64,000 bases of DNA from Gammaproteobacteria bacterium (GTDB lineage Bacteria > Pseudomonadota > Gammaproteobacteria > CAJXQU01). How positions within the stretch are numbered: position 1 is the stretch's first letter; each line of letters starts with the position of its first letter. The position numbers and the translations under genes were made by a program. Below are positions 5,586-30,126 of this stretch, piece by piece. Under the pieces are notes generated by a model. The model saw nothing but the letters and a program-made list of their open reading frames with translations. It had not been told where the DNA came from and made no database searches. The stretch is from positions 1,760,001 to 1,824,000 of the forward strand of contig CBDEGZ010000003.1 of assembly GCA_965238175.1 (NCBI GenBank), written 5' to 3'.

Positions 5586-6017
5586 ATGGCAATTCCCGCG
5601 TTAAATGAAAAGGGTGAATTAGAGGCCGGTGAGCATGAAGCGACACTGGATGAAGTAGAAGCCGTTTATGGTTCTTCTTCACCTCGCAGGCAATACCTAA
5701 TGCAGGGATTGCGTGATGCAGCTTATAGCTTGAGTGAAGCTGGTGTTAAAAGCATCTGGATTGATGGCAGTTTTATCACGGATAAGCGTGAGCCGAATGA
5801 TATAGACGGGTGCTGGGAATACACTAACTCGGTCAATATCAGCAAGCTTGACCCGGTATTTTTAGGTTCAAGAGAAGATGCGAAAAAAAAATATGGTTTG
5901 GATTTTTTTATTTCCAATATTGTCGAAGCAGGAAGTGGCTTACCTTTTCCGAAGTTTTTTCAGGTAAACCGTGAAGGTGATGCCAAGGGCATTATTGTTG
6001 TGAAGTTAGGAGACTGA
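5586..6017 (+). CDS. Minimal nucleotidyltransferase-fold protein (DUF6932-like)
   Basis: WIDGSFITDKREPNDID = GS...DxD polymerase-beta-type NTase motif; N-terminal IPxxxxxGxLxxGxH. Confidence 0.75.
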   Translation: MAIPALNEKGELEAGEHEATLDEVEAVYGSSSPRRQYLMQGLRDAAYSLSEAGVKSIWIDGSFITDKREPNDIDGCWEYTNSVNISKLDPVFLGSREDAKKKYGLDFFISNIVEAGSGLPFPKFFQVNREGDAKGIIVVKLGD

Positions 6018-6019
6018 TA

Positions 6020-6433
6020 ATGATTACAAGCGATAAACAGTACGCGGCTTCTAAAAAGCAATTGGCAGTGCTTCAAGAATCATTAGCGACTGACATGAAA
6101 AAAGATATCCCTAAGCTTATTAAAGAAGCAGGTAAGGCCCAATTGCAAGAATTGATCGATGAGGTTCAATCTGAAATTGCGGAATACGAAACCTTAAAGA
6201 GCTGCGACTTGGAGGATTTAAAAATTCATTCCATTCAGGATTTAATGGTGATACCTATTCGCTACCGAATTGTATCGCATATGAGTGTTGATGCGTTTAG
6301 CCGTAAGGTGGGTATTAGCGCCCGGCAGATACACCGGTACGAGTCTGAAAATTACAATAATGCCAACACAAGCACTTTGAAGAAGATATTGGATAAGTTG
6401 GATGTGAGTCTTGATGGTCATGTCACTTCGTAA
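6020..6433 (+). CDS. XRE-family HTH protein (HigA-like antitoxin/regulator)
   Basis: MITSDKQY start and C-terminal HTH (SVDAFSRKVGISARQIHRYESENY); starts 2 nt after upstream stop. Confidence 0.75.
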   Translation: MITSDKQYAASKKQLAVLQESLATDMKKDIPKLIKEAGKAQLQELIDEVQSEIAEYETLKSCDLEDLKIHSIQDLMVIPIRYRIVSHMSVDAFSRKVGISARQIHRYESENYNNANTSTLKKILDKLDVSLDGHVTS

Positions 6434-6811
6434 GCAAAAAGCTTGGAAAACGAATAGCTACGAAGAAAGGCCAGTATTTCTGCTTGTTTTAGAGTGGGCA
6501 ATAAAATGGAAACATTCAAGAATGAGCTAATATTTTTGAAGCAAAATTAAAAAAGCCCAACCATCCAATGGTCGAGCTCAAGATTATTACTTACATGGAG
6601 GCTTCGTTGTTAAGAGCCATGCTTTAACCCTCAAAACTAACCAGCCCAAATAATATAAACAACTATCTTCATAATCAATTACTACGCTGCAAACTATTGT
6701 TATTTGATTGAGGGTAGTAATACCCAAGTTTAGTTAATCATTGTTTCGCCATATTGGGGGGGGTGTACTATCATGTAGAATCTATAGGGGAATTTGGGGA
6801 CTCTTCAACAC

Positions 6812-8098
6812 ATGAAAAACATCGGTTTCAAATCACAGTCTGGCTTTTCACTTATAGAGCTCACTATTGTATTACTCATAGTTTCTTTGTTGGGGCTAGG
6901 CGCACTGAAAAGCATTGGAACGATAAGAGAAAAGATCAGCTTTTCAGAAACAAATAACAGTTTAGATAAAATCACAGCATCACTTCAATTATTTCTCATA
7001 AACAATAACCGATTACCTTGTCCTGCTGATCCCACTTTAGATTCCTCCGATGCTAATTATGGTCTTGAGATGGCGGCGGCAACTGCGACTACCAATGTCT
7101 GTGATGCGTCACGAACAATTGGAATTGGATTTGTTGGTGTATTACCTTTCAATTCATTAAATCTTGATCCGTCCATTAGGTACGATGGTTGGAATCAACA
7201 ATATACTTATGCTGTAGCTGCAAATACTACAACCTTTGAATCATATACTCAGGATAGTTGGACACCCGGCGGCAATATTATTCAAGTTTTGAACGATTCT
7301 GCCACTGCGGTACCTATAACAAATGAAGCTATTTTCGTCTTGGTATCGCATGGGCCAAACGGTAATGGTTCAATCCGTATTAATGGAAATGTCAGTGCGG
7401 CTTCACCTGCCGGGGCTACTGATGAACTTGAAAACCTTAGAGATGATCTTGTTTTCGTTGATGCTATTCGTACTGACGATGAAGTTGCGCCATATGATGA
7501 TGTGATGGTTTTTAAAACTGAAGAGCAGTTAGTCTTTCCGTTAGAACAATTAGGTTCTTTGGAGTCAAAAAGAAAAATTGTGAATGAACAATTAGATGCT
7601 ATTGAACATAGCTTGTTTGATGCGATTGCCTCCAACAATACCGATCCAGATGGCGTCCCAAGTGATCCAGCTACTCCTGCCCCTTTATATTGTAGTTGTG
7701 TTGCTGGTTATATTTATCCATCGGGGCCAAATATTGGGTTAGAAATACCAGTGTGCTCATCAGGATGTAATAGAACGATTAGACATGCGATTGAGCCGCC
7801 TTCGGGAGGAGCAATACCCGTTCCCTTTGTGGCATTAAATTTAACCCAAGCCGATGTTACCGATCCTTGGGGTACACCTATTGATTATATTATTGGTGCA
7901 GGTGGACTATTAGAAGATTTTGCTGGCACCGCAGGAACTGAAGGCATCTATTCAAACTCGGCAGCCGCGACGCTTTATACTTTAACTTCGGCAGGGCCAG
8001 ATACGAATTTAGCAACGATAGCTGATAACATCACGAGAACAGTTACGCCAGGTGAAATGGTTGGAAGACTTGCTGCTGCTGGAATTAAAGTGGACTAA
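6812..8098 (+). CDS. Prepilin-type N-terminal cleavage/methylation domain protein (pseudopilin-like)
   Basis: G^FSLIELTIVLLIV prepilin motif; RLPCPA, DGWNQQYTYAV, LVSHGPNG, DPWGTPIDY, SAGPD motifs. Confidence 0.8.
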   Translation: MKNIGFKSQSGFSLIELTIVLLIVSLLGLGALKSIGTIREKISFSETNNSLDKITASLQLFLINNNRLPCPADPTLDSSDANYGLEMAAATATTNVCDASRTIGIGFVGVLPFNSLNLDPSIRYDGWNQQYTYAVAANTTTFESYTQDSWTPGGNIIQVLNDSATAVPITNEAIFVLVSHGPNGNGSIRINGNVSAASPAGATDELENLRDDLVFVDAIRTDDEVAPYDDVMVFKTEEQLVFPLEQLGSLESKRKIVNEQLDAIEHSLFDAIASNNTDPDGVPSDPATPAPLYCSCVAGYIYPSGPNIGLEIPVCSSGCNRTIRHAIEPPSGGAIPVPFVALNLTQADVTDPWGTPIDYIIGAGGLLEDFAGTAGTEGIYSNSAAATLYTLTSAGPDTNLATIADNITRTVTPGEMVGRLAAAGIKVD

Positions 8099-8107
8099 AC
8101 GAATCTC

Positions 8108-8305
8108 ATGAAAACATCTGAAGCACTATCACGGTTTCTACTATATACATTCGCAGCCTTCATCGTTCTGTTGATGCCAATAATTTTTATGGGTGAAGCT
8201 TCATCGGTGGATGAAATGTATGGACTAATGTTAAGAAGTTTATTGTTCTCTGTTGCTATTGGAGTATTGGGAACGCTACTTGTTCAGATAAGATCTAAAC
8301 AATAG
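8108..8305 (+). CDS. Small two-TM membrane protein
   Basis: 65-aa ORF with two hydrophobic helices, 9 nt after the pseudopilin gene. Confidence 0.5.
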   Translation: MKTSEALSRFLLYTFAAFIVLLMPIIFMGEASSVDEMYGLMLRSLLFSVAIGVLGTLLVQIRSKQ

Positions 8306-8368: not shown

Positions 8369-8590
8369 TTACCAAAACTGTTCAATATGCTCACGCACGG
8401 CCTGATCAAAACAACTAAGATTGTCGTCTTCAACCAATTGCTCGATATACCGATCACAAACGGCCAATTTGATCATCATCAGACCGTAATTGGATAGTTG
8501 TTTCCGATAGTACGCTTCCTTTTCTTTTTGGTTCATTATTAATAGTTTATTGTCCGGCACATCAACTCCTTCTTTTTGCAGTTTAAACAA
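8369..8590 (-). CDS. Small hypothetical protein
   Basis: Directly abuts the recombinase stop; start uncertain. Confidence 0.4.
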   Translation of the reverse strand: MFKLQKEGVDVPDNKLLIMNQKEKEAYYRKQLSNYGLMMIKLAVCDRYIEQLVEDDNLSCFDQAVREHIEQFW

Positions 8591-9196
8591 TCACAAACAA
8601 TTCTTGTAAAGGTCTTCAATCTCTTGAGGCTGAATACACAGATATTCCAAAGTTTCTTGTTCTGAGGAATGCCCAAAGGCGCGTGAAATAAGTACCAAGG
8701 GTTCATTAAAGGTTTTGCGCATGTGATAGCCCCATGTCTTACGCAGACTGTGAGAGCCGTAATTGCCGGGTAAATCGATATCCTTGCACCATTGTTTAAC
8801 TAGGTTATGTACACGGTTCGGTGAAATCGCGCTATACGGTTTTGTCAGCGAGCATATCAACGGGGCTTCTGGGCAATTATTGGGGTGATGCTGAAGCCAG
8901 AAATGCAACACTTCAATAGCCGATTGATTGAGCGAGATGGCTCGATACTCACCATTTTTACTTTGCTTGATGTCCAGTCGGTCACCGGCTTTTAAATGAC
9001 GGACTTGACCCAAACTAATCGAAACCAGTTCATTGGCACGATAGGCCGTATTTATTCCAAAGACAAATAAACACAAATCACGCGGACGATTTTTTAATCG
9101 TTTTTTGATGTTTTTAATCGACGATAAATTGCGAATAGGTTCGACTTTGATAGAAGAACCTTTAACGGGGTGGTTTGGGTTTTTAATGGCGCTCAT
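8591..9196 (-). CDS. Small tyrosine recombinase (catalytic domain only; resolvase/invertase-like)
   Basis: RDLCLF..GINTAYR (R), HSLRKT (HxxR), GHSS (H), TLEYL (Y); 201 aa, no arm-binding domain. Confidence 0.9.
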   Translation of the reverse strand: MSAIKNPNHPVKGSSIKVEPIRNLSSIKNIKKRLKNRPRDLCLFVFGINTAYRANELVSISLGQVRHLKAGDRLDIKQSKNGEYRAISLNQSAIEVLHFWLQHHPNNCPEAPLICSLTKPYSAISPNRVHNLVKQWCKDIDLPGNYGSHSLRKTWGYHMRKTFNEPLVLISRAFGHSSEQETLEYLCIQPQEIEDLYKNCL

Positions 9197-9252
9197 AACT
9201 TCCTAAGCAGCGCTTTAGAGGGGTGGGGAGACAGGTTTGAGCAGCCCTGACC

Positions 9253-9390
9253 AACTTCTCGGGGAAAGTTAATAATATATGGAAACATCAATTCCGTCAA
9301 AGGCTTAACTTTCTCTGAAAACACCAAAACATACACGCGCCCGCTCAAAAATGAGTGCTGATAATGGATACCAACTTTCCCCGAGAAGTT
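9253..9390. repeat. Perfect 18-bp inverted repeat pair enclosing a sigma70-like promoter
   Basis: AACTTCTCGGGGAAAGTT (9253-9270) is the exact reverse complement of AACTTTCCCCGAGAAGTT (9373-9390); minus-strand TTGACG-17-TATTAT at 9300-9272. Confidence 0.8.
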
Positions 9391-9440
9391 AAAGACATTT
9401 TTTCAATAAAACTGTTTTTAACGAAATAAATTCATCTATT

Positions 9441-9920
9441 TTGGAGCGTGTGGAGATGGTCAAAGGACAGATTTCTTATACAACTAATTTATTGGGAATG
9501 ACGCTTACTTTTCTTTGGATAGTTTTAAGTACGACAGTCAACGCTGAAGATATGGCAGACCTAGCAAAATTCTCGACTAAAGAAGATTATATTACCTGCT
9601 GGAAACAACCTTGCGTTAGAGTTGCGGGTAGTGAATGGTCAGAGAAAAATCCTAATGGTGTTGCGGTATCGGTGCGGATGGGATCACAACCCGCAGCGAC
9701 CGACGATCAAATTAAAATGGTATTGACCCGCGATTTAAACCATTACGGAGTCAAGAATATTAAATTTTTTTACGAACAAAATGATGCTGTTGCCAGTGGT
9801 ATATGTCTTCATGTGCGTGGTGGTACAGAAGGCGTGTTTATGATTAGTAATGTAAGAGAAGAGTTGGAGGCCGTAGCCAAAAGAGCGTTAAATACAAACC
9901 CACTGTTTCTACCAGATTAA
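9441..9920 (+). CDS. Exported hypothetical protein (probable start ATG 9498)
   Basis: MTLTFLWIVLSTTVNA-ED looks like a signal peptide. Confidence 0.55.
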   Translation: MERVEMVKGQISYTTNLLGMTLTFLWIVLSTTVNAEDMADLAKFSTKEDYITCWKQPCVRVAGSEWSEKNPNGVAVSVRMGSQPAATDDQIKMVLTRDLNHYGVKNIKFFYEQNDAVASGICLHVRGGTEGVFMISNVREELEAVAKRALNTNPLFLPD

Positions 9921-10639
9921 ATTTTAGGTGCTAGAAACTCATTCAAAGCAATGTCTTGATTACTTTTGAGGCTATTATCTTCTGAATTATCAGCGCCATC
10001 TTTAATTTCAGACTGTATGTCTGATTGCGGGGCGGCCTCACGCTCAGCATAGGTTTGCTCTTCGGTATTGGCACGTTGTTCAAGCCCTTCAAGAATCTGA
10101 GCTTGGCGCTCAGGGGTTGTCTCGGAATTTTTTAATTCTGCTACGGCTGTCTGTGCAGAATTATAATTAAATTGTTTTTGTGCCCACTGCGCATAATCGC
10201 CATATTCAGGATGGTCTTTATATTCATCCTTGATACTACCATCATCGTTAAGCATTTCATTGATAAGGTGTTGCTCTAACCGTTCACGATAATCAGTCAT
10301 ATTTTCATCATCATGGCGCGGTGGGATTTCATCAGGGTCGAGAATTTGTAGTGCAAGGTTTTCACGCCACGCATCACCATAGCGTTGATGAAAGTCCTGT
10401 TCCATTTTTGCAATATCAGAGGCTAGTTTTTCATTATCGGCAATAATGCGATTAACCAGATCAATCAGATCAGCACTTCTTTGTTTGTCTGATTGTTGTT
10501 TTTCATGGTGTTTATTTAACGGAGTTGTTGCACCACTGCGTTCCTGCAAACCGGATAACGAACCGCTTAGCTGACCACGAAGCATTTCGTTTTCAGAGTA
10601 AATGCCATCGTGTTTAGATTTGTCCGTTATCTCTGCCAT
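9917..10639 (-). CDS. Acidic helical hypothetical protein
   Basis: 240-aa ORF, convergent 4-bp overlap with 9441..9920. Confidence 0.65.
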   Translation of the reverse strand: MAEITDKSKHDGIYSENEMLRGQLSGSLSGLQERSGATTPLNKHHEKQQSDKQRSADLIDLVNRIIADNEKLASDIAKMEQDFHQRYGDAWRENLALQILDPDEIPPRHDDENMTDYRERLEQHLINEMLNDDGSIKDEYKDHPEYGDYAQWAQKQFNYNSAQTAVAELKNSETTPERQAQILEGLEQRANTEEQTYAEREAAPQSDIQSEIKDGADNSEDNSLKSNQDIALNEFLAPKI

Positions 10640-12666: not shown

Positions 12667-13185
12667 TCAATGACTCCAGAACACATGAATGTGTTGATAG
12701 CCAGTTTCGATGGTGTAAATATCACCACTCAATTCCATATCGCATCCCATGCGCTCATAGTCGATATAGAACGCTAAATGTTCAGGAATATTGGAGGTGG
12801 TGTCTTCGGTTAGCTGCTGGGCGTAATCAGCAAGACTTTCATGTTCACCCTGATAACCCTCATTTAATGCTCTTTGGGCATCCTCAATATCACCGCACCA
12901 ATGGTTTAATACAAAAGCACCCAACTCGCCGTGCTCTTCAAGAAACAGGGCGATATTATTGGCACTTTCCAGTCCTTCATATTCTGATAATTCGACACCG
13001 TAGAACCCTTCGTAATCATGGAGCGCATACTCTTCCGCCCCTTGTTCTGGGCTTTCGGATAGCATCTTATTCACTTGGTCTTGAATATCATTTAAGTCTT
13101 GGGTGGCATCAATCCAGACACCATGCAAAATACCGTTGTTGTATGCGGCTAAATCTGCCACGTAAATTTTAGGTTCTATGCTCAT
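12667..13185 (-). CDS. ardA: Antirestriction protein ArdA
   Basis: IYVADLAAYNNGILHGVWIDA, EEYALHDYEGF, YIDYE motifs; highly acidic DNA-mimic composition. Confidence 0.93.
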   Translation of the reverse strand: MSIEPKIYVADLAAYNNGILHGVWIDATQDLNDIQDQVNKMLSESPEQGAEEYALHDYEGFYGVELSEYEGLESANNIALFLEEHGELGAFVLNHWCGDIEDAQRALNEGYQGEHESLADYAQQLTEDTTSNIPEHLAFYIDYERMGCDMELSGDIYTIETGYQHIHVFWSH

Positions 13186-15194: not shown

Positions 15195-17822
15195 TCATGG
15201 ATTATTTATGGCTTTCATTGTTTTCCTTCGTTCTTGGATTAAATAAATAACATTTTCTAAACTCTTAATGTCTTTTTCTAGCTCGATTGGTGAGGGAACA
15301 GGATCATTTTTATCTGATGCAGGATCATGCCCTTCGACTAAATCATTACAACGGTCATACAGTCTCTTAATTTTGTCACATTCATCCTCCTGAAATCCTA
15401 CAACGTCTTCTAGACTCTTGATGTTGATCCAGTCTCTATAGCGTCGGACGACACCACTAAAAACAACATCTTGAACAACACGCTCTATTGTCGAACGAAG
15501 GCGACTATAAACACTCATCATTTCCTCAGCATCTTCAGCAGTTGGATATTGCGACCATGGCTTTTTTATCAATGTAGTACGATCTTTTTTCAGTGCATCA
15601 ATGCGCTCTTTATAGGAAGAATGTCCCCAGGGTAATCCTTCACGGATATTTCCAGAATACTCACCTTTCCACTCCATATACTGAATTTTATGATCCAAGT
15701 TCTGTGTATCAATTTCATCACGGAGTTGTCCAAGAAAAGAAGTATCATGAGTAAAGACGATAACTTGACGTGACTTGGCTTCATGAACGAGTCTCCGAGC
15801 TACGTTTTGGCGCCTCCAATGATCAAGAGAGGAAACTGGATCATCGAATACAATCCCACAATTATGATTTGCTAATGACAGCTCAGCTAAAAATGAGCCA
15901 AGGGCGATTGCACGTTGTTCACCTTCACTTAATATCTCCTCCAGTGGTTTGTTTTTGGGTAGCTTCAACAAGAGTTGATGGTGCATTTTTCCTTTTATAT
16001 TTCTAGGCCTAAGTATAGTTTTGATGTGATCAACGCCAAGATTTGCGAACTCAATGTCCAGAGCATTTTTTAGTTCTTCTGTGACGGCTTGACTGGCAAA
16101 GTCCTTTGCCTTCTTTGATATTGGAGCTGTTTTTAAATTTTTCTTACACTTTTCAAGATAAGCTACTGTTTCTTTACGTCCAATCACGTCAAGTACGCTT
16201 TTCAATGATTTTTTTAGGCTTAGTCTTGCGAGTAAGTCATTGTATTCTTGGGTAAGTAACTTTTTACTTTCTTCATCAAATACCCTTATATACATTCTAG
16301 CTTCTCTTAATTGCTGAGCAGCTAATTTACGCAAGGCTTTACTTGGATTATTAGATAATTGGTTTACTTCATCCCATTTGTGCGTGACAAGAGTTTCTAG
16401 CATCCACTGCTTTCTTTTATTGATACTTTCTTGATAAACATCAATACATTGCACAAGTGTTGCATCATGCAATGTTATTTCATCTTTGAGGCTTTTGTCT
16501 ATTGCAACTACAAGATGGGCATTATCTATTTTTTTTCGTATCGTCGTAAGGTTTGCTCGTTTTTCAGTAACTGATTTAGCAATATCATCCTTGATATATT
16601 TTTCAAAACGTTCAAGTCTTTCGCCAGTTTCATCATTCAACAATGTTTGGCAAAGTGGACAAACTGCATCTTCATTCGTATGTGGAAACACATGTTCACG
16701 GCAGGCAATTTCTGTTGAATATCTTCGTGCGGCTTCAAACATTACCTTCCATAATTCTTCACCAGTTCCTGGTAATAAAGTCTCATTAGCTCGAAGTGCC
16801 TTTGCTGCACTCTTCTCAGCAGTCTCAGCAGCTATAAATTCATTGTCCAACGTATTTAGTTTTTGTACTGCGTTATCACTTACCCAAAGTGCCACATCAT
16901 TAATGTTCTTCGCTAGGTCTTTGAGACGTGATACGAAGCGTTTCAGCTCATCAGCTTTAGCTATGGGATCACTTTCGGTTAATGCTTGAGTTAACTCAGG
17001 TATACGATCAATTTCACTTTCCGACAATGTGCTTAGTTTCGTAATTACTTCTCGATCCGTTTTTTCATTGAGTTCTGATATCTGCCTACCAACCTCAGTT
17101 TCACCTAAAAGATGATCAAATACTGTTGTACTTGTATCAATTGAGAGAATATCTGAATTAAGCCTTTGCTCTAATTCAGGGATAACGGCTCTAGCAAGGT
17201 TCTCTACTATATCCAGTCCGTAAGGCAGGTAGGCAACATCTTGTTCAGCAGTTAGGTATGAGCGTGCACAACGAGAATCGAATACGGAAATCATTGATAA
17301 AACATCAGGTGCTACCTCCCCCCTTTGCCAACGTACATTTTCTTCATTACCATGAATTATTATTTTGAATATTGCTTCAGGAACAACGTTATCAGAAGCT
17401 AGATCATTTGCATTCGCATGTACAATCTCTTCTCTATCACGGGAACGGCAAGCCTGTTTCATCACCCGAACGTAACCTGATTTTCCTGTGCCGTTACCAC
17501 CGTAAATCACCGTCATGCCTTTTTCGTTAAATAGCAACCTTTGTTTCGGATCAATACGATTAACATAATTTAAACCAGAAATTTCTTTTAAAGTTGCTGT
17601 CACACCGGCTTGAATTGATGAAGGTAAGTGGTCGGGGCTTAGTGGTTTTGGAATTAAATTGTCAGGACTTGAAAGGCCGTGTTCTATTTTGAGTAAAGAA
17701 TAAAGTTGGAAATAGTCATCTTCTGACAAACCCTCTTCACTTTCTAATAATCTACGGCAAGCATCACTTTGCCAATCAGGTAATGTCTGTGTCCATTGAA
17801 GTATGTCATTTAAAAGGTTCAT
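15195..17822 (-). CDS. Rad50/SMC-type ABC ATPase with zinc hook, RloC-like
   Basis: Walker A GGNGTGKS, coiled coil with CPLCQ hook, signature LSEGEQR, Walker B IVFDDPVSSLD, FTHD; C-terminal extension with R..H motif. Confidence 0.8.
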   Translation of the reverse strand: MNLLNDILQWTQTLPDWQSDACRRLLESEEGLSEDDYFQLYSLLKIEHGLSSPDNLIPKPLSPDHLPSSIQAGVTATLKEISGLNYVNRIDPKQRLLFNEKGMTVIYGGNGTGKSGYVRVMKQACRSRDREEIVHANANDLASDNVVPEAIFKIIIHGNEENVRWQRGEVAPDVLSMISVFDSRCARSYLTAEQDVAYLPYGLDIVENLARAVIPELEQRLNSDILSIDTSTTVFDHLLGETEVGRQISELNEKTDREVITKLSTLSESEIDRIPELTQALTESDPIAKADELKRFVSRLKDLAKNINDVALWVSDNAVQKLNTLDNEFIAAETAEKSAAKALRANETLLPGTGEELWKVMFEAARRYSTEIACREHVFPHTNEDAVCPLCQTLLNDETGERLERFEKYIKDDIAKSVTEKRANLTTIRKKIDNAHLVVAIDKSLKDEITLHDATLVQCIDVYQESINKRKQWMLETLVTHKWDEVNQLSNNPSKALRKLAAQQLREARMYIRVFDEESKKLLTQEYNDLLARLSLKKSLKSVLDVIGRKETVAYLEKCKKNLKTAPISKKAKDFASQAVTEELKNALDIEFANLGVDHIKTILRPRNIKGKMHHQLLLKLPKNKPLEEILSEGEQRAIALGSFLAELSLANHNCGIVFDDPVSSLDHWRRQNVARRLVHEAKSRQVIVFTHDTSFLGQLRDEIDTQNLDHKIQYMEWKGEYSGNIREGLPWGHSSYKERIDALKKDRTTLIKKPWSQYPTAEDAEEMMSVYSRLRSTIERVVQDVVFSGVVRRYRDWINIKSLEDVVGFQEDECDKIKRLYDRCNDLVEGHDPASDKNDPVPSPIELEKDIKSLENVIYLIQERRKTMKAINNP

Positions 17823-18045: not shown

Positions 18046-19353
18046 TCAGATTATGTTAAAAGCAATCTTCTCCAACACTTCTTTTTTCAACTCCAAGCTT
18101 GGCCCATTACCGTAACGTTCACGATTGTATTTGTGTCCCATCAGGGCGGCTTGCACTTTTTCCAATGTCTTTACCTCAGTCAACCGGTCTTCGAAGCTAT
18201 GTCGCAAACTGTAGACACAATGCTCGCTAGTTGGTAACAGATCATGTTCACGTAAAAACTTATTCAGATTAGCCGATAGGGCATCCGGCTTCCGATAATA
18301 ATGCTTGAATCCTTCTGGTATGTTTTGAAACGCAAAGAGTGACGTGCCAACCAAAGGTATTTTGCGTTTGCTATGTTTGGTTTTCAGTGCCCTGTCTTTT
18401 TCAGGCTGGATATCAATATACGGGATATCTGTATCAAGCCGGATATGTCCCTTCAATGGGTTCAAGCCCAGCAGTTCAGACGGTCTTGCACCGGTATCCG
18501 CCATGGCATAAAGAAACCAACGGCATTCGCTATCTAGCCCTTTTAGATTCGAGACGTTCAGTAATGTATTTTGGATATAAGCTGTTTCAAAAGGAGGGCG
18601 GTGACTTTCTTCATGCTCTTCCGAAAAACGCATTCTAGTGAATAACTTTTGAACATCTAAGTTATAGCGATAATGATCGTCTACAAAACTTAAGAGTGTT
18701 CTTAAGTGCATAAAGTCCTTATTCGCTGTTGCAGGATTGAGTCCGCCTTTTCCTAATGTTCGACTTTCCCACCACTGGCGCAACACGCTTATATGATCTC
18801 TTGTAATATCCTCTACTGAAAGATCACTATTTTCCCGGACAAAATTTTGCACGGCCTTGATACGTGGATTCTTCCATTTTCTTATCTGGTCATCACTTTT
18901 ATTTTTCAGGTTTGGGATCTGAAACTCAAAGTAGTCTTCCAAGGCCTTAGTCAGTGGCAGTGATTGCTTTTCTTCAGAACCCAGTAAAGCAGAGGTATTC
19001 ACTTCATTTCGACTCTCTTGATTTTTTAATGTCAGGGAACGACTGACAATTTCCGAAAGCTCACTTTCAGCAATGTGCTGTGACGTCTTATAGGTAAATC
19101 CATGAGCCTGAGCTAACGCTCGTAGTTTTTTAAGGTTGAATAATTCAGTGGGATTATCTTTAAATCGGGATTGATCCCAATATTGTTCAATCTGTTCATT
19201 CAATGCGGTCGCACGCTGTGCAGCGATGCGATCAGAATCTGTTTCCAGCGAAATTTGAACAAACTCGACCTGCTCAGGGTAATAAGGTTGATACTTTGCG
19301 GGTATACGACGTTTGAAATGCTTGGCTTTATTACGGGTAATAACATAAGGCAT
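18046..19353 (-). CDS. Tyrosine integrase with N-terminal arm-binding (DUF6538-like) domain
   Basis: FKRRIP...ISLET N-terminus; TGARPSE, YSLRH, MGH, RYG catalytic motifs; ORF extends to TTG 19362. Confidence 0.9.
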   Translation of the reverse strand: MPYVITRNKAKHFKRRIPAKYQPYYPEQVEFVQISLETDSDRIAAQRATALNEQIEQYWDQSRFKDNPTELFNLKKLRALAQAHGFTYKTSQHIAESELSEIVSRSLTLKNQESRNEVNTSALLGSEEKQSLPLTKALEDYFEFQIPNLKNKSDDQIRKWKNPRIKAVQNFVRENSDLSVEDITRDHISVLRQWWESRTLGKGGLNPATANKDFMHLRTLLSFVDDHYRYNLDVQKLFTRMRFSEEHEESHRPPFETAYIQNTLLNVSNLKGLDSECRWFLYAMADTGARPSELLGLNPLKGHIRLDTDIPYIDIQPEKDRALKTKHSKRKIPLVGTSLFAFQNIPEGFKHYYRKPDALSANLNKFLREHDLLPTSEHCVYSLRHSFEDRLTEVKTLEKVQAALMGHKYNRERYGNGPSLELKKEVLEKIAFNII

Positions 19354-19385
19354 GTGTGACAACTTGTGCTACAAAATGTGTAACA
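19353..19385. repeat. Integrase arm-type array 1 (3 copies of TGTGTRACAA-like, 12-bp period)
   Basis: TGTGTGACAA 19353, TGTGCTACAA 19365, TGTGTAACA 19377. Confidence 0.75.
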
Positions 19386-20442: not shown

Positions 20443-20811
20443 ATGGCTTACAATGACTTTCCGCCTAGACTGATTAGAATGCGTGATGCGCCTTCTTATG
20501 TCGGAATGGATCGCCATCGTTTTTCAAAGAACGTCCGGCCATGCCTGACTGAAATCCCAATGGGTGTCCAAGGGATTGCTTTTGACCGACTTGAAATTGA
20601 TGCGTGGGTAGAGGAATATATTCAACGCAACGGGCGTCGTCCAAAACTTCAAAAAGTGGAGGATGATGTATGTCGAAACGTAACCAAATGCCGGGACTTC
20701 GCCTTAAAGGCAAGATCTGGCACATTGAAAAACGCTGTAGACACGCCGACGGCGGTTGGCTCCGTGAAAGCACGGGAAAAACTGGCCGCGCTGAGGCAGA
20801 AGCATTCCTGA
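20443..20811 (+). CDS. Putative excisionase/recombination directionality factor
   Basis: RLIRMRDAPSYVGMDRHRF...FDRLEIDAWV winged-HTH pattern; overlaps the integrase start. Confidence 0.65.
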   Translation: MAYNDFPPRLIRMRDAPSYVGMDRHRFSKNVRPCLTEIPMGVQGIAFDRLEIDAWVEEYIQRNGRRPKLQKVEDDVCRNVTKCRDFALKARSGTLKNAVDTPTAVGSVKAREKLAALRQKHS

Positions 20812-21824
20812 TAAGCCGGTTGGCTTATTTGGAAAAAGAAGCGGAACGTAAAAACGAGAGTAGCTATACGTTTTTAGAGGCGGGCTTGCGATATCTGGAA
20901 GATATTGCGATAAAGCCATCGGCAGATACGATGGCCATGCACCTGGATCAATTATTTCCCTTTATCGGGGAGCTTGTATTAGAGCAGGTTCATGATGCGA
21001 CACTCAAAACATTTATTAATAGCGAAGTGGCTGCTGGCAAAGCACCTAAAACGATTAATAATGCGCTTGGGGTGGTGTCGGCTGTTTTGAACAGAGCGGC
21101 ACGTGTTTGGCGAAATGAGGATGGATTGCCATGGTTAAAACATGCGCCACCGAAATTAAGCCGAATGTCTGCCATGGGAAAACAAGCGAAAGCCTATCCG
21201 TTATCGTGGGATGAGCAAGATCGTCTGTTTAAAGAGTTGCCAAGACATTTGGCTGATGCGGCTTTGTATGGGATCAATACAGGTTGTCGTGAACAGGAAA
21301 TTTGTCAATTGCGCTGGGACTGGGAGGTGAGGGTGCCGGATTTAAAAACGTCTGTTTTTATATTGCCGGAAACGCTGACCAAAACTGGAACAGAGCGCAT
21401 TGTTGTTCTCAATTCTGTCGCGAGACGGGTGATTGAAGGACGACGTGGCAAACATCCCGATCATGTTTTCACCTACCGTGATGCGCCGCTTAAAAAGCTA
21501 CATGCCAGTGGTTGGCGAAGAGCTTGGAGAGTCGCAGGGATGCCGGTAGAAAAAGGTGTTTTAAAGGGGGTTCATAATTTGCGACACAGCTTTGGAAGAC
21601 GTCTTAGAAGTGCAGGTGTTTCATTAGAAACACGTAAAGCCTTATTGGGACATGCGCACGGTGATATCACCACGCATTATTCTGCGGCTGAGTTAGCTGA
21701 ATTAATGAATGCAGTTGAAAAGATTGTTGATCGTGGCGTTGCACAAACACCGGCACTCTTTTTACTTCAAAGCACCAAGATAAAAGACACACTTCCGAAC
21801 ATGTCGGAAAAGTGTCGGAAATAA
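20670..21824 (+). CDS. Tyrosine integrase adjacent to tRNA-Arg
   Basis: NTGCREQE, HNLRH, LLGH, THY motifs; GGAGG RBS; TGTCGGAAA repeats at its 3' end. Confidence 0.92.
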   Translation: MSKRNQMPGLRLKGKIWHIEKRCRHADGGWLRESTGKTGRAEAEAFLISRLAYLEKEAERKNESSYTFLEAGLRYLEDIAIKPSADTMAMHLDQLFPFIGELVLEQVHDATLKTFINSEVAAGKAPKTINNALGVVSAVLNRAARVWRNEDGLPWLKHAPPKLSRMSAMGKQAKAYPLSWDEQDRLFKELPRHLADAALYGINTGCREQEICQLRWDWEVRVPDLKTSVFILPETLTKTGTERIVVLNSVARRVIEGRRGKHPDHVFTYRDAPLKKLHASGWRRAWRVAGMPVEKGVLKGVHNLRHSFGRRLRSAGVSLETRKALLGHAHGDITTHYSAAELAELMNAVEKIVDRGVAQTPALFLLQSTKIKDTLPNMSEKCRK

Positions 21825-21868: not shown

Positions 21869-21945
21869 TGGCGCGCCCTGAAGGATTCGAACCTCCGACC
21901 ACCTGGTTCGAAGCCAGGTACTCTATCCAGCTGAGCTAAGGGCGC
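21869..21945 (-). tRNA. tRNA-Arg(UCG)
   Basis: 77-nt cloverleaf GCGCCCTTAGCTCAGCTGGATAGAGTACCTGG-CT-TCG-AA-CCAGG...GGTTCGAATCCTTCAGGGCGCGCCA. Confidence 0.95.
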
Positions 21946-28959: not shown

Positions 28960-29973
28960 TTAGGCCGGTGAGTAGTCATCACCAGAAACCGTTATAGCCC
29001 AGGCCATTCTTGCCATTTTGTTGGCATACGCCACACACGCTCGATTATGCCCCCGCGTCTCAACTAAACGATTAATCCATTGACTCAGTTTATCGCCTTT
29101 CGTTTTGGCTCTTGATACCACGGCCTTCGCGCCTAGAATTAACAAACAACGAAGGTATTTATTGCCGCGTTTACTGATCCCCAGTAGCACCTCTTTACCA
29201 CCACTACTGTACTGTCGTGGAACAAGTCCTAATGAGGCGGACACATCGCGCCCTTTGTGATAATGAGCGCCGTTTCCCACTTCATTAAAATACGCGCTCG
29301 AGACCATCGGCCCAAACCCTGGAATAGTTTGTAAGCGTTGGCAAATCGCATTGTTTTTTGCCGATTGAATGATCAATTGGTCAAATGTCGCAATACAGGC
29401 ATCAAGTGATTGCCATTGTTCCTTTAGCTGGCGCAGTATCCTTTTGAAAGTAACGGACAACCGTTCGTTCTCATCACTTAATAGCAACGGGATAGATTGA
29501 CGTAGGGTATTTAGGCCGGGACGAAGGCTAATGCCATATTCTGCAACAAGCGCTCTCATTTGGTTACATAATGCGGTTCTTTGTCTGACCGCTAAGTCTC
29601 TTGCTTTATGTTGTGCCTGGTTGTCTTGTTGCTCAACTGATTTAATGCCCACACTTTTTAAATGAGGTTGTTTCGCAGCAACGGCGATGGCCAAGGCATC
29701 GTTATAATCATTCTTATTGCCGATTAGAAATGCGTTAACATGCTGAGGTGGTAGTAATTTCACCTGATGTCCCTGTTGTTGTATCGCTCGGGCCCAATAC
29801 TGTGACGTTGCACAAGATTCTATTGCGACTAAACAAGGAGGTTGAGATTGAAAAAAGGAGAGTACCTGCGCTCGCTTTAACATTTTCTTTTTGATTATAC
29901 GCCCTTGTTGATTACAGCAGACAGCATGAAATACGTTTTTTGCTATGTCTAACCCGATTGTTGTAGTCTTCAT
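28960..29973 (-). CDS. IS110-family recombinase/transposase
   Basis: TIGLDIAK, IESC, KNDYNDA (DEDD RuvC-like) and GLVPRQYSSGGK (Tnp serine loop); GAGGAG RBS before ATG 29973. Confidence 0.95.
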   Translation of the reverse strand: MKTTTIGLDIAKNVFHAVCCNQQGRIIKKKMLKRAQVLSFFQSQPPCLVAIESCATSQYWARAIQQQGHQVKLLPPQHVNAFLIGNKNDYNDALAIAVAAKQPHLKSVGIKSVEQQDNQAQHKARDLAVRQRTALCNQMRALVAEYGISLRPGLNTLRQSIPLLLSDENERLSVTFKRILRQLKEQWQSLDACIATFDQLIIQSAKNNAICQRLQTIPGFGPMVSSAYFNEVGNGAHYHKGRDVSASLGLVPRQYSSGGKEVLLGISKRGNKYLRCLLILGAKAVVSRAKTKGDKLSQWINRLVETRGHNRACVAYANKMARMAWAITVSGDDYSPA

Positions 29974-30126
29974 TTTGGTCTTCTCCTCTTTTGATTGTGT
30001 GTATGTCAGTTCAATCATGGCACCTAGATGCCGTTAGGGGGAGGAGACCATCACATCAGGTTAGTTAAATTCTTCTAAGAAATACTAAATTATTATTTGA
30101 ACAGACTGGTTGGATTTATATGAAAA

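Follow-up and report, generated by a model that had tools for sequence, protein, structure and literature searches.

A candidate promoter-inversion switch beside a small tyrosine recombinase gene on a gammaproteobacterial genomic island

A small tyrosine recombinase gene and a divergent cargo gene

Our analysis concerns a stretch of 64,000 nucleotides (nt) from a Gammaproteobacteria bacterium (GenBank assembly GCA_965238175.1, contig CBDEGZ010000003.1, positions 1,760,001 to 1,824,000 of the forward strand), referred to here as the window. It carries a gene for a small tyrosine recombinase (8591-9196, minus strand), a divergent gene for a putative exported protein (9456-9920, plus strand; the cargo gene) and, between them, a pair of 18-bp sites in inverted orientation that enclose a promoter-like sequence. 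An original prediction, made from the letters of the window, had proposed an invertible promoter switch at this place, and on the evidence described below we consider it probable that the locus is a DNA-inversion switch.

The recombinase has 201 amino acids (aa) and comprises a catalytic domain only, which matches PF00589 over residues 33-188 (E=1.9e-15) and places the protein in the tyrosine recombinase superfamily. Its open reading frame (ORF) is intact, and the residues R53, K80, H149, R152, H176 and Y185 are invariant in an alignment of the window protein with 19 homologues; an N-terminal motif, NPNHPxKGSSIKVEPI, is mostly invariant in the same 20 sequences. An AlphaFold2 model (pLDDT 84.3) shows a single catalytic domain after about 22 low-confidence residues. 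In fold, the model comes closest in the PDB to the catalytic domains of XerH, XerA and Cre (13-22% identity); these three, and likewise that of lambda Int, are matched by Foldseek with a probability of 1.00. Sequence comparison links the protein only weakly to solved structures: it gives three PDB matches, none of them a Cre chain, with XerA (E=3.9e-11) as the best. Cre chains reach target-normalised TM-scores of 0.43-0.46 against the model (14-16% identity), values that are low because only the catalytic domain aligns. NCBIfam gave only far sub-threshold Xer models, and pairwise comparison gave 20% identity with FimB (E=0.028) and 21% with FimE (E=5e-6). The enzyme is outside the FimB/E family and is not a two-domain Cre-type enzyme. 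The earlier designation as FimB/Cre-type is therefore apt as a likeness in kind and not as family membership, given the 20-21% identity and the absence of a core-binding domain. Directly after the recombinase stop codon starts a 73-aa ORF (8369-8590, minus strand), which may be co-transcribed with the recombinase gene; it matches no Pfam or NCBIfam family and has no similarity to the ORF at the same position in L015, one of the related loci compared below.

The cargo gene encodes a protein of 154 aa. Its frame is open from TTG 9441, in agreement with the predicted ORF 9441-9920, and we judge ATG 9456 the likelier start. The hydrophobic N-terminus ends in VNA, followed by ED, and appears signal-peptide-like when read directly from the sequence and the homologue alignment rather than with a predictor. 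The 130 homologues found at E≤0.001 have variable hydrophobic N-termini and two invariant cysteines, C48 and C53. The protein belongs to no Pfam or NCBIfam family, no solved fold matches it at E≤0.001 (the weak thioredoxin-like matches serve only as a lead), and a stored homologue fell into unnamed clusters only, with scores below 0.85. It was not found in the 399 other genomes of the class sample. Within the same genome there is a second, partial copy of the cargo gene (L146, G000:C3:980209-980364), with 63% identity over residues 30-81 in a 93-aa open frame; the own-genome search found no recombinase homologue near it.

Two inverted sites enclose a putative promoter that faces the recombinase gene

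The recombinase-proximal site at 9253-9270 (AACTTCTCGGGGAAAGTT) reads AACTT-CTCGGGGA-AAGTT, with 5-bp palindromic arms around an asymmetric 8-bp spacer, and the distal site at 9373-9390 (AACTTTCCCCGAGAAGTT, or AACTT-TCCCCGAG-AAGTT) is its exact reverse complement. Together they delimit a candidate invertible segment of 102 bp (9271-9372). A direct read and a repeat search of the window agree on two sites of 18 nt that are 100% complementary, inverted and 102 nt apart, which corresponds to 120 bp from start to start; the inverted spacers agree at 8/8 positions. Both sites also have ACC...AA flanks in direct orientation and form a 23-nt direct-repeat family (9250-9272 and 9370-9392). The sites, their palindromic arms and their common flanks are thus as originally described, whereas the third copy proposed between them proved to be partial. 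At 9305-9321, just upstream of the -35 element, one arm and a spacer-like stretch are 82% complementary to 9256-9272 over 17 nt, which covers an arm and part of the spacer and not a full site. This partial copy may be an accessory binding half-site; the segments of L137 and L015 show nothing comparable.

Short inverted repeats are common, and nothing beyond this speaks for a chance pair, or for an RNA or cruciform structure unlinked to the recombinase, an explanation that we regard as extremely improbable. Allowing three mismatches, the 18-mer occurs in the 64-kb window at these two sites only (expected number 0.07), and two or more copies appeared in 0/100 shuffles of the window. Allowing two mismatches, the 3.35-Mb genome contains both sites and one unrelated two-mismatch site 0.9 Mb away. 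The motif recurs, moreover, upstream of homologous recombinase genes across phyla. Ten metagenome contigs with the exact 18-mer, which we rejected as chance matches, likewise argue against coincidence at the locus itself: they hold single copies, with no recombinase gene (best tblastn E=0.39) and no similarity in the flanks. The double-site pattern with exact arms was present in the genome of the window only among the 401 genomes of the phylum sample (1/401). In viral contigs it was found in 61 stretches, mostly tandem repeats, none of which had a recombinase at E≤1e-5. A shufflon, an idea prompted by a prepilin-like gene 0.5 kb away, was also considered and rejected, as neither the window nor the genome contains a further copy of the site.

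A promoter scan of the segment identified the sigma-70-like sequence TTGACG-17-TATTAT (9300..9272, minus strand; 10/12 consensus matches), which faces the recombinase gene, as the original prediction had it. The promoter occupies the recombinase-proximal end of the segment, and its -10 element ends 1 bp from the proximal site. Transcription would thus start inside this site, at a position predicted near 9265, so that bound recombinase would probably also repress the promoter. A weak hybrid match, CTGACC-18-AATAAT (9247..9276, plus strand; 9/12), extends across the proximal site and, as the segment is now oriented, points at the cargo gene; it is gone after inversion in silico. The same in-silico flip brings the only strong promoter ahead of the exported-protein gene and leaves no match of 9/12 or better facing the recombinase, in support of the predicted transfer of the promoter to the exported-protein gene. 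The window thereby has a feature of invertons, namely inverted repeats that flank a promoter with a recombinase gene nearby.

The arm motif recurs upstream of related recombinase genes

Relatives of the recombinase are numerous (1544 at E≤1e-10 among 1594 candidates, mostly of 198-239 aa), and the best non-self match among 5.8 billion sequences has 63% identity; the roughly 120 closest homologues, at 55-63% identity, come for the most part from ENA, Logan and JGI contigs. The gene is sporadic among sampled genomes: a match was found in 2/7 genomes of the own family, 7/400 of the class sample and 2/401 of the phylum sample, as well as in 3/21 genomes of the family of G564, 7/231 of its order and 3/126 of the family of G330.

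We compared the DNA around these relatives in genomes, plasmids and 39 viral-contig loci. AACTT-N8-AAGTT recurs 60-240 bp upstream of homologous recombinase genes (43-62% identity) in unrelated genomes and plasmids across phyla. The arms are often lengthened to perfect palindromes of 11-13 bp around the 8-bp spacer, giving loxP-like 13-8-13 sites about 150-180 bp before the start codon (examples are L006, L007, L011, L016, L029, L030, L033, L034, L043 and L071). The spacers vary from locus to locus while the arms stay, which is the pattern expected of an enzyme's recombination site. Judged by this sequence comparison, the arm motif is the recognition site of the recombinase family. Relatives on the viral contigs lie outside the two-site clade described in the next section; a lone lox-like site was recognised in some of them, and no site in many.

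Two further observations concern relatives with other site arrangements. Enzymes of 190-200 aa on plasmids (L029, L032, L033, L034, L142 and L143) and viral contigs (L043 and L071) are accompanied by a single perfect 13-8-13 site about 150-165 bp upstream, in some cases next to ParA or toxin-antitoxin genes, and are candidates for minimal Cre-like resolution systems. In the viral-contig loci L051 and L052 (about 2280-2480), an arm-like 13-mer, AAAAGTCTAACTT, is present in four or more copies, direct and inverted, upstream of the recombinase relatives, which suggests a more complex multi-site region.

Spacers match within two-site loci and differ between them

With at most one arm mismatch allowed in a full site, 21 distinct loci qualify (16 together with L140, L147, L148, L151 and L152; L150 is the same record as L029). 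A second, inverted site is present in ten of them: the window, L148, L147, L137, L013, L140, L009, L139, L012 and L015. The spacing from start to start is 120-123 bp in nine of these loci and 130 bp in one, and the segments measure 102-112 bp. In 10/10 loci the central 6 bp of one spacer are the exact reverse complement of those of the other, with nine different sequences among the loci, and in four loci (window, L148, L137 and L015) all 8 bp agree. Elsewhere in these loci, an inverted match of the central 6-mer occurs at a background of 6 per 37,197 positions. L013 and L140 are orthologous (72% DNA identity), and their proximal spacers are one base apart (TTATAGAA versus TTACAGAA); in the distal spacers the complementary base is altered as well (TTCTATAT versus TTCTGTAT), a compensatory change between orthologues. 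An overlap that is matched within each locus and varies between loci is as required by homology-dependent strand exchange between both sites, and is a comparative signature of recombination between them. A binding or architectural role does not require matched overlap identity.

This point bears on a rival explanation that we consider unlikely, though one to be taken seriously. The two sites could constitute one composite recombination and operator region, serving resolution and autoregulation like the TnpI site of Tn4430, rather than a switch. Multimers of the excised island or of a plasmid would be resolved at one site, while the second site would shape the complex and repress the promoter between them; productive inversion would be absent or a rare by-product. 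The 120-123-bp spacing, fixed in 9/10 two-site loci, fits such an architectural role, and a precedent exists in TnpI and its internal resolution site (IRS), a 116-bp site with core and accessory motifs (PMC2847244). However, accessory sites need no identity for strand exchange, yet here the central 6 bp match in every two-site locus, differ between loci and have undergone one compensatory change. Related plasmid loci do carry accessory arms, and these are without overlap identity.

The two kinds of loci are also separated in the phylogeny of the recombinase. In an IQ-TREE tree of 48 rows, for which the loci were hand-chosen and rows with an aligned stretch under 150 aa were dropped, all of the then-known two-site loci (8/8) fell into one clade of nine with support 97/94. 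The two-site label requires two changes on this tree, a number as low as this in 0/500 label shuffles. A FastTree tree, again of 48 rows and including L147 and L148, placed all ten two-site loci in a clade of 11 (support 0.969), in which the exception is L138, with a single site. The sister clade consists of cyanobacterial and Spartinivicinus plasmid enzymes, whose loci have one lox-like 13-8-13 core and, at a promoter about 117 bp away, arm-like half-sites without overlap identity. That the two-site loci form a clade of their own, apart from the plasmid type, argues against the resolution explanation.

Flank symmetry as a probable footprint of inversion

Inversion swaps the inner arms of the two sites. 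As a measure of this exchange, we counted the consecutive palindromic bases beyond the 5-bp arms, as found and after in-silico flipping, at the distal and proximal site (values in this order). Symmetry rises on flipping in five loci, which are thus hybrid as found: from (0,0) to (2,3) in the window, from (1,1) to (3,5) in L013, from (1,1) to (3,3) in L140, from (0,0) to (3,3) in L012 and from (0,0) to (0,5) in L009. L013 and L140 are not mutually independent in this count. In the window, the distal site becomes TTAACTT...AAGTTAA on flipping, and the proximal site becomes ACCAACTT...AAGTTGGT. In three other loci the proximal site is symmetric as found, with 8 bases in L137 ((2,8), flipped (2,3)), 6 in L015 ((2,6), flipped (2,2)) and 7 in L139 ((2,7), flipped (3,2)). 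The flanks of L147 and L148, inspected by eye, do not discriminate between the arrangements.

These patterns imply that the flank symmetry would be a footprint of inversion and that both arrangements probably occur among related loci. If so, the ACC/AA flanks common to both sites of the window would be explained by a segment that is now opposite to the state with two internally symmetric sites. An exchange of inner arms between the sites is also more than the resolution explanation provides for. The predicted inversion substrate, whose promoter would be redirected away from the recombinase and towards the exported-protein gene, accordingly draws support from arm conservation, the 10/10 match of the central 6 bp, the single clade and the flank symmetry.

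Promoters and cargo genes of the related loci

Apart from the promoter end, where the window and L137 can be aligned, the segments share no usable similarity between loci. L137 has a complete promoter (10/12) in the same position and direction as the window, and L147 has TTGAAT-15-TATAAT at the same place and in the same direction. In L012, TTGGCT-16-TATAAT is located at the opposite end of the segment and likewise reads toward the recombinase. In-silico flipping redirects the promoters of the window, L137, L147 and L012 to the divergent gene. In L013 a TTGACT abuts the proximal site, and TTGACT-17-TAGTAT, directed toward the divergent gene, would arise only after the flip.

In the window, L015 and L137, 31-70 bp separate the distal site from the start of the divergent gene. 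By eye, it appears to encode a protein with a signal peptide or lipobox in at least six of the ten two-site loci (window, L137, L015, L012, L139 and L148; the N-termini were read without a predictor). The cargo of L137 (361-1209) is a secreted protein of 282 aa whose C-terminus carries a PEP-CTERM-like sorting signal, and that of L148 has a lipoprotein signal (LAGC). The cargo proteins of different switches are mutually unrelated, so the recombinase together with its switch behaves as a portable module.

Proposed mechanism and the observations that weigh against it

In the mechanism we propose, the 201-aa recombinase would bind the AACTT/AAGTT arms of both sites and exchange strands within the identical, oppositely oriented spacers, whereby the 102-bp segment would be inverted. 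In the assembled orientation, the intergenic region's one strong promoter, of sigma-70 type, would drive the recombinase gene. After inversion it would drive the divergent exported-protein gene, with a start site predicted near 9378, and the recombinase would lose its promoter. Once flipped, the segment would therefore be stably inherited in that state until leaky expression of the recombinase turns it back.

Several observations weigh against this interpretation. Of the public sequencing runs searched, two contain the locus (X1 and X2, from one sample of one study), as assembled contigs of depth 6.7 and 2, and no RNA run is listed for it. Both show the assembled orientation, with no variant letters, joints or loose ends, although contigs drop rare variants; that no inverted molecule was seen is explained by the restriction to low-depth contigs. 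All four strong in-segment promoters (10/12; window, L137, L147 and L012) face the recombinase as assembled, whereas a latch that holds the segment once flipped should be met in its flipped form now and then. The one-sided direction would require that such a latch switches rarely, is biased or makes the flipped form costly. Absent these, the promoter direction favours the autoregulated promoter region of a resolution-type recombinase. The promoter of the window, moreover, is a consensus match only. The loop of 102 bp is short, and the segment of the window contains no site resembling that of integration host factor (IHF) with at most one mismatch, scattered one-mismatch matches being found elsewhere. 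One arm of the distal site is degenerate in 5/10 two-site loci, and the only orthologous pair, L013 and L140, is collinear. In L012, from the same genus (G005, about 1400-2013), the recombinase is split between two frames just before PRDLCLF. Finally, the plasmid relatives with one 13-8-13 core and promoter half-sites about 117 bp away are sometimes located near ParA. The degenerate distal arms, the uniform promoter direction and these plasmid relatives also count in favour of the resolution site discussed above.

Some of the same observations would be accounted for by a relic, that is, a switch that was once invertible and is now fixed, for example through a silent or inactive recombinase, and which serves as the plain promoter region of the recombinase gene. 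The contigs at depths 6.7 and 2 gave no orientation variant, and L012, with its broken frame and degenerate distal arm, looks like a decaying copy of the module. The closest protein being only 63% identical, close relatives give no measure of recent activity. In the window, however, the sites are perfect, the spacers agree at 8/8 positions, the ORF is intact and the catalytic residues are complete, none of which is expected to persist without selection. We therefore consider a relic quite improbable, and continue to regard an inversion switch as the probable nature of the locus.

The candidate switch is located on a genomic island

The locus is part of a genomic island (window 1-21945) that ends at a tRNA-Arg(TCG) gene (21869-21945), adjoined by an integrase gene (20670-21824). 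The island further encodes a second integrase-like protein with DUF6538 and a SAM-like domain (18046-19362), an ArdA antirestriction protein (12667-13185) and an AAA_13/SMC-like ATPase of 875 aa (15195-17822). Flagellar and chemotaxis genes follow beyond the island, from about 23.7 kb, and include in their midst an IS110-family transposase gene (28960-30018; DEDD_Tnp_IS110 and Transposase_20).

At a distance of 0.5 kb from the recombinase, a prepilin-like gene (6794-8098) encodes a protein of 434 aa with an N-terminal methylation motif. It is followed by a 65-aa hydrophobic ORF (together 6794-8305), an arrangement that resembles a PilV-type adhesin beside a recombinase. Further along, at 5586-6433, a DUF6932 gene (143 aa, E=2.8e-33) and an HTH_3 gene (137 aa) are 2 bp apart and may represent a toxin-antitoxin-like or defence pair. 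On the other side of the switch, the stop codons of the exported-protein gene and of a convergent gene for a 240-aa acidic protein overlap within a 17-nt imperfect hairpin (9905-9938), which may act as a bidirectional terminator.

A tentative broader reading and its significance

Taken together, the comparisons allow a broader reading that we put forward tentatively, as possible in its entirety but not as the expected outcome. The two-site loci would constitute a class of self-contained latch switches that is widespread and so far undescribed, and with their catalytic-domain-only enzyme of 200 aa, their segment of about 102-112 bp and their nearly fixed spacing they would be the smallest lox-type systems known. 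Their origin would be a resolution system of plasmids in which accessory arms turned into a second core site. As the recombinase's own promoter would be on the flipped DNA, inversion would turn the exported-protein gene on and the enzyme off at once, resulting in a rare, heritable and nearly one-way commitment of a subpopulation. The module would move between islands and capture unrelated cargo genes.

Promoter inversion by site-specific recombinases is a known route to phenotypic heterogeneity, for which enteric pathogens and gut anaerobes provide the well-studied examples. If the switch reading holds, the loci described here would represent a distinct switch family in environmental, largely marine, Proteobacteria. 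Its location on mobile islands, upstream of unrelated exported-protein genes, suggests that it may be a common and overlooked form of phase variation outside host-associated bacteria. The apparent series from a single core with accessory arms on plasmids to two cores with matched overlap on islands would, if true, be an example of a resolution system turned genetic switch. The relatives of 200 aa, about 60% of the size of Cre, also appear, from their sites, to act on loxP-like sequences of 34 bp and would be attractive as compact genome-engineering tools if they are independent of host factors. In the literature covered, with subscription journals outside its range, we found no paper that describes this recombinase family or its sites.

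Comparison with known systems

The fim switch of Escherichia coli (fimS with FimB/FimE) likewise combines recombinases of about 200 aa that have no separate N-terminal core-binding domain with a short, promoter-bearing invertible element for a neighbouring gene of a surface or exported product, and with an adjoining recombinase gene. Orientation is expected to affect recombinase expression in both cases, fimE being under orientational control. The similarity is only generic, however, at 20% identity to FimB and 21% to FimE. The fim switch has two recombinases and the window one, and the window promoter would drive the recombinase itself in one orientation. The sites differ too: those of fim are 9-bp inverted repeats with unlike flanking half-sites around an element of 314 bp (fimS), whereas the window has lox-like sites, with palindromic arms and an 8-bp spacer, around 102 bp.

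Cre/loxP and the Cre-type systems Vika, Dre, Nigri and Panto share with the window the palindromic arms and the asymmetric 8-bp spacer that sets orientation. In loxP, the arms measure 13 bp and the spacer 8 bp (PMC11260471). The likeness extends to the position of the site upstream of the recombinase gene and to the catalytic-domain fold, which resembles that of Cre. Strand cleavage in loxP is offset and gives a 6-bp overlap, and the identity required at our loci, which is confined to the central 6 bp, fits an overlap of this length. Cre differs in size, with PDB chains of about 320 aa compared with 201 aa and no core-binding domain here. Cre also acts on a single site, which serves in the resolution of plasmid dimers and in circularisation, whereas the window has two inverted sites around a promoter.

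TnpI is a larger, two-domain enzyme. In Tn4430, and also in Tn5401, its gene stands beside a multi-motif region, an arrangement that matches the plasmid members of the window's recombinase family. The IRS of Tn4430 is a region of roughly 116 bp in which TnpI binds both a core and accessory motifs, the latter being direct repeats without a crossover region (PMC2847244). One core with accessory arms is what the plasmid relatives L032, L033, L034, L142 and L143 show. In the window, by contrast, both sites are complete cores with identical inverted overlaps, unlike the composite TnpI type.

The promoter invertons of gut Bacteroidales and Clostridioides difficile (Mpi, Tsr-type and RecV) likewise consist of short promoter segments between inverted repeats that control surface or exported products. 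Their recombinases are mostly global, with many loci per enzyme, and often of the serine type or larger tyrosine enzymes. The window differs in having one dedicated recombinase for its switch, on a mobile island and with no other target in the genome. By descent, the nearest functional relatives of the locus appear to be resolution systems of plasmids, of the TnpI/IRS kind. By analogy, it would work like the fim switch and the promoter invertons, with a site design like that of Cre/loxP.

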